Sequence record: NZ_CP110908.1
Source of the DNA: a plasmid
Strand: one strand, 5' to 3'
Length of the DNA stretch: 64,000 nucleotides
Part shown: one piece after another, positions 51,701 through 54,700 of the stretch
Layout: each line of letters starts with the position of its first letter
Position numbering within the stretch: the stretch's first letter is position 1
Program-made: the position numbers

Positions 51701-54700
51701 AGTGTGATGAACACTCTGATTAGAGTATAGATAGAGTGTACTTATACTCTATTTTAAATCGCTCTGTTTAAAATACATCGTTAAAAAAATCATAACCAAC
51801 TGTTTTAAAAGACAAATCATGCAAGATTAAATCTTGCGACGGGTGTGGGACTTTGATGTTAAGGAGCAGGCATACAGAAATATACCTGCCGGGAAGAATT
51901 CAGTATTTCCGGGCATTGCCGTTTTTTATCAAAAATGGCACTCTGGCTAAAGAAAAGATAATGAGGAATAGCTGACGTGAGGAAAACTCTGATTACAGGA
52001 CTACTGGCGATGACATTTTCTGTTAATGCGCAGGACTGTTTTGAAATGGCGGGAAGAGATTATCGGATCGAGCCGGATCTGTTACGGGCGATTTCGTTCC
52101 GTGAGTCGTCCTGGCGTGATAATGCGCTCAACGTTGTATCACAGAGCGAATATGCTGTCGGTAAGATGCAAATACACTCACAAAACTTTTCGCATCTGGC
52201 TCAGTTCGGGATCACTCCCCGACAACTTTATACTGACAATTGCCTTAACATTTACACTGGCGCTTACTACCTTGCCATTGCTTTTAAACGCTGGGGATAC
52301 TCATGGCGGGCTGTAGGGGCTTATAATGCAGGATTTCGTGAAACGGAAGTACAGGAGAAAAAGCGCCAGCAATATGCAAAAGAAATTCAGGCAATTTATG
52401 TTGCCATCAAAAAAAATGCGCCACCAGAGTGACGCACCTGTTTTAATCGATAGCCCGCCATATCAATCCACGTTCCGGATGTTGAATAAGACTGACATAA
52501 TCCTTCAGCGCATCCTGACGGGCGACAAGCTGTTTACAGACTTTCGCATATTTATCTCCCATATCCGCCGCCTGCCAGGACAGCCAGTTCATTATCATCA
52601 ACGTTGCAATAATTCCTGCAGCATCAGCACTGACCTCTGACTCAAAATAATTACCGGGGACACACATGTTATAATGTTGTTCTCCTGCTGGTGCGATATA
52701 CCCGGTTTGTGTTGTGGTGAAGATAATTCTGTTCGGGGCCACATTGCCACCAACACCCTGCGGAATGATCCAGTAATTCCAGAAGCCGCCATCATAATCT
52801 GAATGCTGGCGTAACCAGCTGGCGATCATATTGTCAGCGGATGGTGTAAAAAAAAGAGCAGGGATAAAATCAAGTCGTTCATCACCATCGGTTACACAAT
52901 AGCGCTGAAATTTATCTGTTTTAAATTGTTCGGCTGATTCACGAGTGGCGGTTTTGACGTTAATGGTGTGCATTCAGGTTTTCTCCTTATGGATTTATTA
53001 AATCGTTCGACTTCATCACTGAGCGGCAAAGGGCAATGAATAAAAAGGCGTGCAGCGCTTATATACCCTTTTATTTATTCCTGGCTGATGCTAAAAGCAG
53101 CCCTCTGCGAATTGATGAAAGAGACAAACAGAAGAATGCCGGATGAGAGGTGACAGGCAGGAATAAATAATAATATGACAATTATGCGTCTGAGTAATAT
53201 GTGCGGCGTGTAGCGCAGCAGGTATTACCCTGCGCCGCAGGCGCGCGGCCTTTGACAGCAGTCGGGCAGGTTAACGTCGAACGCGTTACGGGAATAGATA
53301 TTGCGAACAAAACCATCAGTACGCAGGGTCATATTTTTACGTGTCATCCTCGTTTCCCCTCTCACTCAGGATTTGTTAAAAATTTCAGACAGTGCGCCAC
53401 GGATGAAATACAGACAGGCATCTGTGCGAGTGAACTTATCGCCGTAATGCGCATGAGCTTCCTGCACACAAGCCACGTTGTAGTGCCCACGGTCGATAAT
53501 CCGTGCCATTTTTTTCACCCATCTTTTGGTAGATTCTTTGGTGGCGGTTTTGACCTTGACGTTCTGTGTGTTCATCCTGCGTTTCCTCTTGTCTGGTGAT
53601 TAATCCATCTTTCGGTGAGTTCCCTGGCGGCAAAGGGCAAAGTAGCGACGACGTACGGAGGAAGGAAAGGGGCGGAGACAAAAGTTTTTGCGGCCCCAGG
53701 CAAAAAGTTTTGGCGGAGTTTATATACCCCTTGGATGACGACACGGCGGTGCTACGACCAGCCCTCCGCCCGGGGAACTCACCGAAAGATGGATTACCAG
53801 AGGCAGGGAAAGAGGATGAACACACCCGACACGGCGGAACGGCGTGGCGACATCAGAGTGACGGCAGTCTTATCGCCGGCACGGTGAAAAGCGGCGCATC
53901 CGTTTACGGATGCAGCAAGCGAGGGGTTGGTGTTGCGACAGCCTGGGATGGACACCCGCTGCCCCAAAGGAGCCGGGCAGAGACAGCATTGCTGGCTCTG
54001 TGCGAAGCATGACAGCCCCGGTTCCCGTCAGGGAAGTCGCCCGGGAATGGCTGTGATACCCGCCAGTTCAGTAGCCAGACCTGCCAGCGTATAGTTTTTT
54101 TTATCCAGCACATCAGCCCGCAGCAGCAGACTGTTAATCAGAAAGGTATCCAGCACCGGCATTCTGTGCAGACATGTCATTCGTAGCCCGCTGGCAGACT
54201 GCAGCAATATCATCCAGTGGCCACAGGCTTCTCCGGGGCTGGTCAGCATGAAGAAGTGCCGACAATGCGGTGGTATATACCGCAGACAAACTGGCCATAC
54301 TCCACCATACTCACAGAAAATTTCAGGTGAAGCCACCCAGCCCTCCGGCAAAAGCAACTCCCCCGCTACGGCCTGCGTCAGCACCTGACGTGACGACCAG
54401 CCATCAGCGCGAAATTGTTCAAAATCCCCGGGAGTCATGGAAACCAGCGCCGGTAATGTCAGTCCTGTATTCAAATTCGGCATCCCTCTATTACCTCTGT
54501 TATTACTGAATTCTGCATGCGCAGCATACCCGGTATCGTACCTGACTTCGCTCCCCTGCTCACTTTTGGGTCAGCAGGGGATAATAACCTGACTCAGCGG
54601 GGAGACTTTTCGCGGAAATACGCCGGGCGAGCTTCCAGTTCACGCCTGATAAATTCATCAGCAAACAACGGCGCGATACGGTTTACACGGCGTTCCAGAT

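Follow-up and report, generated by a model that had tools for sequence, protein, structure and literature searches.

The locus considered here raises the question of whether a long imperfect hairpin, situated upstream of leading-region genes on a plasmid (sequence record NZ_CP110908.1), could act as a promoter on the single strand of DNA that is transferred in conjugation. The analysis covered a stretch of 64,000 nucleotides, hereafter the window. The + strand forms a 260-nt imperfect hairpin at 53566-53825. The original prediction had located it at 53590-53800; the presence of the hairpin was confirmed, while its size had been underestimated owing to an additional, perfect 13-bp helix that closes the base (53566-53578 with 53813-53825) and spans the start codon of the downstream ORF. 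The 27-bp arms enclosing about 150 nt that had been proposed were found at 53601-53627 and 53770-53796, being 96% complementary and with 142 nt in between. Folded as single-stranded DNA, the + strand of the segment 53560-53830 gave -79.3 kcal/mol, whereas dinucleotide shuffles came to -37.7 ± 3.7 (z = -11.2) and none of the 200 did as well, and the stable DNA-mode fold on which the original prediction depended was thus obtained. When the whole 64-kb window was scanned at a coarse step with sliding windows of 280 nt, the hairpin ranked first among the + strand folds after GC correction (z = -5.8). A family alignment was built with the window copy and 20 homologues from 11 genera (79-93% identity), 21 sequences in all. 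The parts of the hairpin are the following:

53566-53825, + strand: complete imperfect hairpin, with base helix, lower stem, mismatch bubble, purine-rich internal loop, and AT-rich apical helix
53566-53578, + strand: base helix, 5' half, GTGTGTTCATCCT, 13 nt, 100% complementary to 53813-53825
53601-53627, + strand: 5' 27-nt arm, which holds GGTGAG (53614-53619), nearly invariant in the family
53638-53643, + strand: mismatch bubble, 5'-arm side, CAAAGT, positional homologue of CATCAC(T) of F
53679-53712, + strand: AT-rich apical helix, CAAAAGTTTTTGC / GCAAAAAGTTTTG, loop of 8 nt, columns 97-99% identical across the family
53731-53758, + strand: candidate promoter on the 3' arm, from a hexamer scan of the folded strand
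53770-53796, + strand: 3' 27-nt arm, which matches the 5' arm here but varies among the 20 relatives and pairs there only in part
53813-53825, + strand: base helix, 3' half, AGGATGAACACAC, from complementarity and the consensus structure

Considering that a promoter of this kind depends on the strand that enters the recipient, the nic region was compared with that of F. In T-strand orientation both regions aligned at 78% (F TTGCGTGGGGTGT/GGTGC, window TTGCGACGGGTGT/GGGAC, at 51835-51852, where the slash stands for the predicted nick). As is established for the F oriT motif, the nick is predicted to fall between 51846 and 51847. By its alignment with the F T-strand through nic, the + strand is identified as the transferred strand, as had been proposed, and the hairpin begins 1.72 kb 3' of the predicted nick. 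The layout of traM, the oriT gap, the SLT gene, and the leading genes is the same as in F. The + strand is also the template for the minus-strand leading genes directly downstream of the hairpin, and the placement of the hairpin on the template side of these genes, 1.7 kb into the leading region, was borne out as well. The genes upstream of the hairpin (psiB-like, psiA, psiB, and ssb) are co-oriented, and two canonical class 1 Frpo copies are found further along the same leading region. The features around the hairpin are as follows:

51820-51852, + strand: oriT nic region, an inverted repeat GCAAGATTAAATCTTGC and then GACGGGTGT/GGGAC, from sequence and motif search
52414-52439, - strand: terminator-like hairpin with a T-run, directly after the antirestriction gene, from a terminator search
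52443-52973, - strand: antirestriction gene, 176 aa, with the same leader type (MHTINVKTATRES...), PF03230, E = 5e-17
52974-53200, + strand: decayed sister hairpin before the antirestriction gene, nhmmer E = 6e-4, profile match at 52965-53111
53366-53575, - strand: first downstream gene, for a 69-aa protein of unknown function, from the ORF list and translation
53519-53575, - strand: 19 leader codons, MNTQNVKVKTATKESTKRW, part of the conserved element

The antirestriction gene lies 0.6 kb downstream of the hairpin in the same orientation, and no minus-strand terminator was found between 53575 and 52443, which makes it plausible that the hairpin drives anti-defence genes. The antirestriction gene is likely the distal gene of the transcription unit. 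The 69-aa protein had no match in Pfam, NCBIfam, or PADLOC; its orthologues were found in Citrobacter braakii and Atlantibacter loci.

The comparison with F Frpo and with the ColIb/IncI1 ssi sites revealed significant homology at the profile level, in agreement with the original prediction. On the T-strand, the family profile (nhmmer) matched Frpo1 and Frpo2 of F (ssiD; E = 2.5e-10 and 2.3e-6) and three ssi sites of the IncI1 plasmid pESBL (E = 1e-9, 8.5e-8, and 6e-6); plain BLAST reached only the apical part of ColIb-P9 Frpo1 (82% over 44 nt, E = 7.6e-7). The F ssiD/Frpo site reportedly goes back to Masai and Arai in 1997. Zygotic expression requires, or is driven by, Frpo1, Frpo2, and the ssi sites (Couturier et al. 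2023, PMC9849209; PMC12672017), and Frpo1/2 of F together with ssi1-3 of ColIb-P9/pESBL have been designated "class 1" ssDNA promoters (Wen et al. 2025, PMC12672017). Judged by these significant profile matches, the element belongs among the class 1 Frpo/ssi homologues as a diverged member, and we consider it probable that it works as such, as an ssDNA promoter active on the transferred strand in the recipient. The reading as a putative promoter is well supported by the homology, the strand, the position, and the embedded RBS and ATG.

The promoter boxes were the point at which the original prediction was not borne out as worded, since it expected a recognisable double-stranded sigma-70 -35/-10 in the stem. 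A consensus scan of the hairpin found none; the best candidates matched 3/6 and 3/6 positions, which is not above chance on motif strength alone, and the region equivalent to the class 1 duplex -35 candidate (GTCCGGGGG/CCCCTGGAC) forms the unpaired purine-rich internal loop. Two readings of the non-template arm may be considered, the 5' arm (TTGAGA-17-CATCAC in F) or the 3' arm (CCCCTGGAC...), and each has points in its favour. On the 5' arm the candidate consists of GTGAGT (53615-53620) as -35, 17 nt, and CAAAGT (53638-53643) as -10, the latter being CAAAGG, without the T at -7, in most relatives; a working Frpo2 construct that lacks the partner of TTGAGA (Samuel et al., PMC11541004) bears on this reading. 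On the 3' arm, from loop to base, the candidate is formed by TTGGAT (53731-53736), a 16-nt spacer, TG (53750-53751), and TACGAC (53753-53758), whose 3' half sits in the mismatch bubble; its match to the consensus is weak and the -7 T is likewise missing. A clearer TAnnAn is seen on the 3' arm in class 2 promoters and in the subtype that precedes antirestriction genes. The string GGTGCTAC.A is invariant in the 21 sequences, and a (T/G)GCTA motif is common to the element, the antirestriction-gene subtype (TGCTAAAAG), and class 2 promoters (GGCTAAGAT). The open-access papers give no mapped -35, -10, or +1 coordinates of Frpo. With the 3' arm as non-template strand, transcription would probably start at about 53630-53636.

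A new aspect of the element is that the conserved unit extends 19 codons into the downstream ORF. The conserved block stops sharply at 53511-53518 in about 20 homologues. An RBS (GAGGAA, 53583-53588) precedes the leader codons, and in 21 of 21 copies the base of the hairpin contains both the RBS and the ATG. At least 8 cargo proteins that are unrelated to one another, an antirestriction protein among them, begin with this leader, and a strong hairpin is found upstream in 25 of the 26 ORFs that bear it; six other cargo proteins had no Pfam match. The variable sites of the leader are distributed over codon positions 1/2/3 as 8/9/8, and its DNA is homologous to non-coding sequence of class 1 Frpo. 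The idea that the leader is conserved as a lower stem, like that of class 1, was rejected: the extended alignment lacked covariation support, and only an invariant mini-hairpin of 6 bp was seen. As a tentative and rather doubtful extension, the selected unit could be a portable early-expression cassette (ssDNA-promoter hairpin, 5' UTR, RBS, and 19 fixed codons) recombined before interchangeable leading-region genes; in that case the peptide MN(H)TQNVNVKTATKESSERW would open at least 8 cargo proteins of unrelated sequence, among them an antirestriction protein of the ArdB/KlcA type. On this reading the leader codons are constrained at the nucleotide level and derived from sequence that is non-coding in the classical Frpo, and the ~60 nucleotides that are transcribed and translated first may have a separate role, either on the single strand or in early mRNA. 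Such a role could be to pass the polymerase from the stem to SSB-coated DNA, to form a primer, or to load ribosomes rapidly.

The coupling of hairpin and leader bears on the alternative that survives best, although we regard it as unlikely, namely that the hairpin is a T-strand structure without promoter function, either a roadblock that delays complementary-strand synthesis or a priming or assembly site at which the second strand is made, the downstream genes being served by the class 1 Frpo copies upstream. Such read-through is possible because the upstream genes, from the psiB-like gene to ssb, are co-oriented. A very stable, T-strand-biased hairpin with weak promoter hexamers would fit this explanation, as would the unusually well matched 27-bp lower stem of the window copy. 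There is also a precedent, since a leading-region hairpin (ssp2 of F) stalls DNA synthesis at the stem end independently of transcription, and Frpo transcripts prime DNA synthesis (Fraikin et al., bioRxiv 10.64898/2026.01.09.698686). However, a roadblock or priming site needs no RBS and start codon in its base, and these are present in every copy; moreover, the hairpin travels with the leader ahead of unrelated genes, and its homology is to class 1 promoters and not to ssp2/class 2. Both roles are in any case compatible, as ssp2 does both, and a promoter remains our preferred reading.

The conservation of the hairpin was analysed along both strands. The consensus structure has 66 pairs, with 98.6% of the cells paired across the family; 0 of 500 shuffles were equally good, and slid controls were paired in 44-55%. 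Compensatory changes were found in 14 pairs, with double changes in 56 cells, these being counts from related sequences that ignore kinship. The stem is far beyond chance, because besides its fold it is conserved with compensatory changes in the 20 homologues. The 5' half of the base helix is complementary to the ATG (53573-53575) and to the second codon of the downstream ORF. In this helix 7 sequences have G-C in place of T-A at alignment columns 13/266, so that codon 2 is altered (Asn to His) jointly with a partner some 250 nt away. A base helix over the start codon that is maintained by compensatory change could also be read as a function of the RNA, in which a read-through mRNA would fold and hide the RBS/AUG (53566-53578 with 53813-53825) as a translational attenuator or a processing site, and the - strand of the same segment does fold strongly (-68.8 kcal/mol, z = -10.1). 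We nevertheless hold this explanation to be quite improbable. The transferred-strand fold beats its complement, which is the mRNA sense, in 21 of 21 family members by 5-23 kcal/mol (-33.8 vs -19.9 in the consensus fold), and the wobble pairs favour the + strand, with 61 G.T wobbles vs 6 A.C mismatches on the predicted structure and 101 vs 66 on strand-neutral pairs. The pair beside the start codon is T.G on the T-strand in 6 sequences, which would become an A.C mismatch in the mRNA, and there is no U-run for termination. Rfam has no family for the hairpin, the sole overlap being a chance-level trypanosomatid snoRNA (E = 0.31). A + strand ORF annotated by RefSeq as "hypothetical protein" (53710-54012) was treated as spurious, as it matched no family and falls within the non-coding structure that is conserved.

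The conservation is not restricted to the paired positions. The mean column identity was 0.94 in the 5' arm vs 0.76 in the 3' 27-nt arm; GGTGAGTTC is present in 20 of 21 homologues, and the arm facing it is variable and mismatched in most. The mismatch bubble (53638-53642 opposite 53756-53760) is conserved at the same place as in F, its CAAAGT segment being unpaired yet nearly invariant across the family, and the apical helix is flanked on both arms by an unpaired, invariant GGCGGAG. The element was found in 983 plasmids, 752 of them predicted to be conjugative, with a near full-length copy in 876; most of the carriers are conjugative plasmids from clinical Klebsiella, Enterobacter, and Citrobacter. 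Within the window, BLAST detected no second copy and the profile search only the decayed sister copy. Its orthologues in Salmonella, Pantoea, and one more Enterobacteriaceae locus are intact hairpins, and alignment with them shows that the sister hairpin has lost the base helix together with some 20 nt of its 5' arm; it folds with -37 kcal/mol (z = -2.0) compared with -67 to -74 for the orthologues. It is still more improbable that the window hairpin is a relic without activity or present function, in other words a Frpo repeat in decay that descent or recombination has carried along: the non-canonical boxes and a clearly decayed sister 0.5 kb away would suit such an origin, but the pairing is kept by the 14 compensatory pairs across 11 genera at 79-93% identity, the unpaired segments are nearly invariant, near full-length copies occur in 876 plasmids, and the window copy is unlike its neighbour, which has the look of lost constraint.

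Returning to the ssDNA promoter, the following sequence of events is proposed. In conjugation the + strand, nicked at about 51846, would enter the recipient with its 5' end leading, and some 1.7 kb behind the nick the region 53566-53825 would snap back into the 260-nt hairpin. Host RNA polymerase with sigma-70 may then bind the folded DNA at the mismatch bubble and transcribe leftwards, copying the transferred strand. The mRNA would begin with the 69-aa ORF (53575-53366), continue by read-through into the antirestriction gene (52973-52443), and end at the terminator 52439-52414. Complementary-strand synthesis would flatten the hairpin into a promoterless duplex and turn expression off. The anti-restriction operon would most likely be switched on within seconds of entry.

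Promoters of the ssDNA kind set which plasmid genes act in the seconds to minutes after entry, before restriction, CRISPR, and SOS, and they have so far been tested experimentally only in F and one IncI1 plasmid. The hairpin is a widespread putative member of this already known kind of promoter, of a subtype that is absent from both model plasmids, F and pESBL, and present in about 1,000 sequenced plasmids, where the annotation gives only "hypothetical protein". The present evidence defines the exact bases for mutation, and the fixed leader codons provide a sequence tag with which genes of unknown function that are expressed early, and may serve in anti-defence, can be traced.

By comparison with the known systems, class 2 ssDNA promoters (ssp2/"Frpo3", which precede klcA and ardA in pESBL and F) are likewise T-strand hairpins before antirestriction genes (PMC12672017; bioRxiv 10.1101/2025.04.03.647016; 10.64898/2026.01.09.698686). 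Their 3' arm, CCCTTGCAT...GGCTAAGAT with the -10 in the bubble, resembles CCCCTTGGAT...TGCTACGAC of this element, but they have another loop and stem organisation, are GC-richer, and lack the AT-rich apical helix. Class 2 sequences had no BLAST match anywhere in the window, and in a joint alignment the element grouped with class 1, with no detectable overall sequence homology to class 2. The class 2 and class 3 promoters of pESBL and the candidates Frpo' 4 and Frpo* 1-3 of Samuel et al. were discarded as relatives, as they showed no homology to the hairpin. With class 1 the element shares the transferred strand, the leading region, and the position upstream of leading genes and co-oriented with them, near oriT as in F Frpo1. 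It also shares the long imperfect hairpin with an AT-rich apical helix (CAAAAnTTTTG) above a GGGG/CCCC helix, the mismatch bubble next to a GCCC/GGGC helix, the GCGGTTTTGAC motif, and CCATC..TTGAG as a direct repeat. When aligned to F Frpo1 and Frpo2, the entire unit of ~330 nt is collinear with them. It differs in that the 5'-arm TTGAGA of class 1 corresponds to GGTGAG, and in that the start codon lies about 80 nt further into the element, so that DNA of the class 1 5' UTR is coding here. The closest published counterparts are Frpo* 5, 6, and 7 of Salmonella enterica AAEPNF010000010.1 (Samuel et al. 2024, Nature, PMC11541004, Suppl. Table 2), which are the same type of element; the identity is 86% over 348 nt with Frpo* 5 and 77% with Frpo* 7. 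The window copy has a well-matched 27-bp lower stem, whereas Frpo* 5/6 are mismatched there. In that work Frpo* is a class of 950 candidates with Frpo-like secondary structure and divergent -35/-10 boxes, of low certainty and drawn from intergenic sequence only, and the listing comes without covariation, a strand-bias test, homology statistics, or the extension into the ORF. With the compensatory changes, the transferred-strand bias, and the true homology to Frpo described here, this published class of low certainty becomes a well-supported candidate.

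The original prediction placed a long imperfect hairpin at 53590-53800; the inverted repeat is real, and the structure reaches further on both sides, occupying 53566-53825 (+). Its 27-nt arms (53601-53627 and 53770-53796) are 96% complementary with a spacing of 142 nt, the base is closed by a perfect 13-bp helix (53566-53578 with 53813-53825) and the cap is an AT-rich 13-bp helix (53679-53691 with 53700-53712). When the + strand from 53560 to 53830 was folded as single-stranded DNA, the energy was -79.3 kcal/mol, whereas dinucleotide shuffles averaged -37.7 +/- 3.7 (z = -11.2); the - strand of the region gave -68.8 kcal/mol. 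Scanning all 64 kb at a width of 280 nt and correcting for GC placed the hairpin first among the + strand folds (z = -5.8), above oriT and both canonical Frpo copies. These copies are class 1 (F ssiD-like) hairpins at 59120-59476, directly upstream of ssb (58524-59084), and at 62599-62892 (+); both fold better on the + strand by 11-12 kcal/mol and carry TTGAGA-18/19-TAAACG in the 5' arm, and the second has no AT-rich apical helix. Strong folds were also seen outside the leading region, at 14281-14560 (+ -68.0 vs - -59.0 kcal/mol; a short distance downstream of repA in pCF1807-2, record 100293-100572) and at 2591-2870 (record 111983-112262), with a Tn3-family transposase gene on one side and relE/parE on the other.

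The window matches pCF1807-2-like conjugative Citrobacter plasmids (MOBF, MPF_F) at 100%. At 51820-51852 the + strand reads GCAAGATTAAATCTTGC GACGGGTGT GGGAC, which aligns at 78% to the F transferred strand across nic, GCAAAAACTTGTTTTTGC GTGGGGTGT|GGTGC; the exact nick position inside the window motif is assumed from published knowledge of F oriT. By this alignment the + strand is the transferred strand and transfer runs towards higher coordinates, so that the hairpin lies on the transferred strand, as had been proposed. It is transferred some 1.7 kb behind the nick, and the + strand is the template for the minus-strand genes.

Features around the hairpin (traM, SLT, antirestriction and psiB-family genes from annotation)
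51125-51508, -, traM; the oriT gap is next
51977-52432, +, SLT transglycosylase gene
52439-52414, -, terminator-like hairpin directly after the antirestriction gene
52443-52973, - (read 52973-52443), antirestriction gene with leader, PF03230, 176 aa; two small ORFs next, then the hairpin
52974-53200, +, decayed sister hairpin preceding the antirestriction gene, minus about 20 nt of the 5' arm and the base helix
53347-53225, -, 40-aa annotated ORF (MTRKNMTLRTDGFVRNIYSRNAFDV...), shortened remnant of a 124-aa leading-region cargo protein
53575-53366, -, 69-aa ORF, first downstream of the hairpin
54028-54483, -, psiB-family gene; then psiA, psiB, parB and ssb, all -

An RBS (GAGGAA, 53583-53588) and an ATG (53575) lie inside the hairpin base, and every copy has both. 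Among about 20 homologues the conserved block passes the ATG and ends sharply at 53511-53518, 19 codons into the ORF. All the proteins start with MNTQNVNVKTATKESSERW or MHTRNV...; behind this leader, MN(H)TQNVNVKTATKESSERW, come at least 8 unrelated bodies (69, 70-72, 97-98, 107, 122, 124, 131-134 and 176 aa), and the only one that Pfam recognises is the 176-aa antirestriction protein (PF03230). Within the 19 codons, first, second and third positions hold 8, 9 and 8 variable sites respectively, which, judged from the alignment, is the signature of nucleotide-level and not protein-level constraint. A strong hairpin (-52 to -82 kcal/mol) precedes 25 of the 26 leader-bearing ORFs (22 loci). A lower stem over the leader codons was rejected as an explanation, as the extended alignment gave no covariation support. 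In class 1 Frpo the homologous DNA (GCGGTTTTGAC, CCATC..TTGAG) is non-coding, whereas here it is coding. Both Frpo units of plasmid F include AAAAGATGATGGGGGCTGAAAAC at their conserved end (~13990-14035 and ~8600-8645), a region homologous to the leader's end in the window. Upstream of ygeA it begins a 13-codon ORF that has its TGA overlapping the ygeA ATG, and upstream of ssb its ATGs are in frame with ssb. These ATGs may be a translational-coupling feature.

The RBS and ATG in the hairpin base, together with the shared leader, argue most strongly for a putative function in expression rather than one that is structural alone. We consider it fairly probable that the element works in the manner of Frpo: on entry, the single strand would fold into the hairpin, polymerase would engage the bubble region and transcribe towards oriT, and second-strand synthesis would afterwards erase the promoter. 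A structural roadblock or priming site devoid of promoter activity, for which ssp2 offers a comparable roadblock case, seems rather unlikely, and such a role and that of a promoter are not mutually exclusive.

Conservation was assessed by scanning one genome of each species for a motif, which gave 28 stretches, 24 of them with alignable matches; 20 full-length copies (79-93% identity) were used, from Citrobacter, Pantoea, Erwinia, Salmonella arizonae, Klebsiella, Mixta, Cedecea, Leclercia, Kosakonia, Atlantibacter, Raoultella and Enterobacter. The consensus structure derived from aligning them comprises 66 pairs with 98.6% of cells paired, a share that fell to 44-55% when partners were slid by 1-3 columns. 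Double-sided changes occur in 14 pairs (56 cells), and 0 of 500 column shuffles were as good, the sequences being related and the counts uncorrected for phylogeny. One compensatory pair joins codon 2 of the downstream ORF with a base about 250 nt away. The transferred strand folds better than its complement in 21 of 21 copies, by 5-23 kcal/mol (consensus fold, -33.8 vs -19.9), and G.T wobbles exceed A.C mismatches by 61 to 6 in the predicted structure and by 101 to 66 with pairs set neutrally from the window copy. This stability bias and wobble excess point to a structure that would matter in the transferred DNA (the + strand) rather than in minus-sense mRNA; an attenuator working at the RNA level is disfavoured by the same bias and appears improbable. 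In 20 relatives an internal loop faces an invariant GGTGAG where the window's lineage (10 near-identical Citrobacter plasmids) is fully paired, its 27-bp lower stem being perfect; both arms are altered there, CATCTCTC to CATCTTTC with the partner changed to match, as though the pairing of the stem had been improved.

The decayed sister hairpin reaches only -37 kcal/mol (z = -2.0), and its orthologues are intact (Salmonella arizonae L022 3968-4260, Pantoea L029 2808-3100, Enterobacteriaceae bacterium L032 3261-3553); they make up a third, shorter subtype, which lacks the AT-rich apical helix and has TGCTAAAAG in its bubble. Given the contrast with this neighbour and the covariation, it is very doubtful that the 53.6-kb hairpin is an inactive relic. 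No minus-strand terminator was found between the 69-aa ORF and the antirestriction gene. Considering both the decay of the sister and this uninterrupted interval, we infer that early expression of the antirestriction gene in this plasmid probably hinges on the intact hairpin. The 124-aa protein is joined straight to the leader in Pantoea, Salmonella and Cedecea, and the 40-aa remnant is a trace of apparent cassette reshuffling.

The promoter elements are the weak point of the promoter reading. Boxes at -35 and -10 had been expected in the stem; the consensus scan detected no sigma-70 promoter in 53300-54100. The folded strand permits two readings, each with at most 3/6 + 3/6 positions, and the -7 T is missing in most relatives. 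The -35 candidate segment is duplex in class 1, whereas the element has a purine-rich internal loop there.

Candidate promoter hexamers on the folded strand
(a) +, 3' arm, loop to base: TTGGAT 53731-53736, 16 nt, TG, TACGAC 53753-53758
(b) +, 5' arm, base to loop: GTGAGT 53615-53620, 17 nt, CAAAGT 53638-53643

In (a), GAC(CA) sits in a mismatch bubble and GGTGCTAC.A is unchanged throughout the family. Class 2 promoters (GGCTAAGAT, GGCTACAGT) and the antirestriction-gene subtype likewise have the (T/G)GCTA motif in their bubbles, and CCCCTTGGAT of the element is similar to class 2 CCCTTGCAT and class 1 CCCCTGGAC. For (b), TTGAGA-17-CATCAC of F is the positional homologue, and the unpaired 5'-arm bases are conserved better than those facing them. 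Samuel et al. had a working Frpo2 construct that lacks the partner of TTGAGA, which mildly favours (a).

The family is present in 983 PLSDB plasmids (876 near full length; 611 from Klebsiella; 752 predicted conjugative), usually in one copy, at sites annotated merely 'hypothetical protein'. In the window, RefSeq places a 100-aa 'hypothetical protein' over the hairpin and flank (53710-54012, +); it has no family match, overlaps conserved non-coding structure and is probably spurious, and the same mis-annotated ORF is found in most of the 983 plasmids. A conserved module common to Frpo* and class 1 lies 3' of each Frpo-type hairpin (53826-54027, 59532-59613, 62949-63041); it contains CACACCCGACACGGCGGAACGGCGTGGCG, which hardly varies, along with small hairpins, for example GCATCCGTTTACGGATGC. 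At 62239-62333 (+) there is a match to Rfam AS-pc01 (RF02875, 'antisense to pHK01_035'; 75.7 bits, E = 4e-12, the gathering score of 79 being slightly higher), which, being on the transferred strand, is antisense to the leading genes.

The element belongs to the known Frpo/ssi kind, and a hairpin at such a site is no surprise to a specialist; added here are the statistical homology to class 1, the compensatory change, the transferred-strand bias, the distribution and the leader cassette. The fixed 19-codon extension common to unrelated cargo genes may be the sole new feature. Identity is 86% over 348 nt to Frpo* 5 and 77% to Frpo* 7, members of a subfamily previously listed as low-certainty candidates (Samuel et al., Supplementary Table 2, PMC11541004). 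This subtype is absent from F and pESBL and is hence outside the scope of the deletion, RNA-seq and 5' RACE results published to date (PMC9849209, PMC12672017). Plain BLAST against the classical sequences recovered the apical 44 nt only (ColIb-P9 Frpo1, 82%, E = 7.6e-7). A profile HMM from 21 family members matched F Frpo1 (E = 2.5e-10), F Frpo2 (2.3e-6) and three pESBL ssi sites (1e-9, 8.5e-8 and 6e-6), on the transferred strand in every case, in keeping with the proposed Frpo/ssi-like identity. In multiple alignments the element is not collinear with class 2 hairpins upstream of klcA or ardA, whereas it is collinear with F Frpo1, F Frpo2 and the window's two class 1 copies; by these alignments and profile matches it is a diverged homologue of class 1 Frpo/ssi, more than a look-alike.
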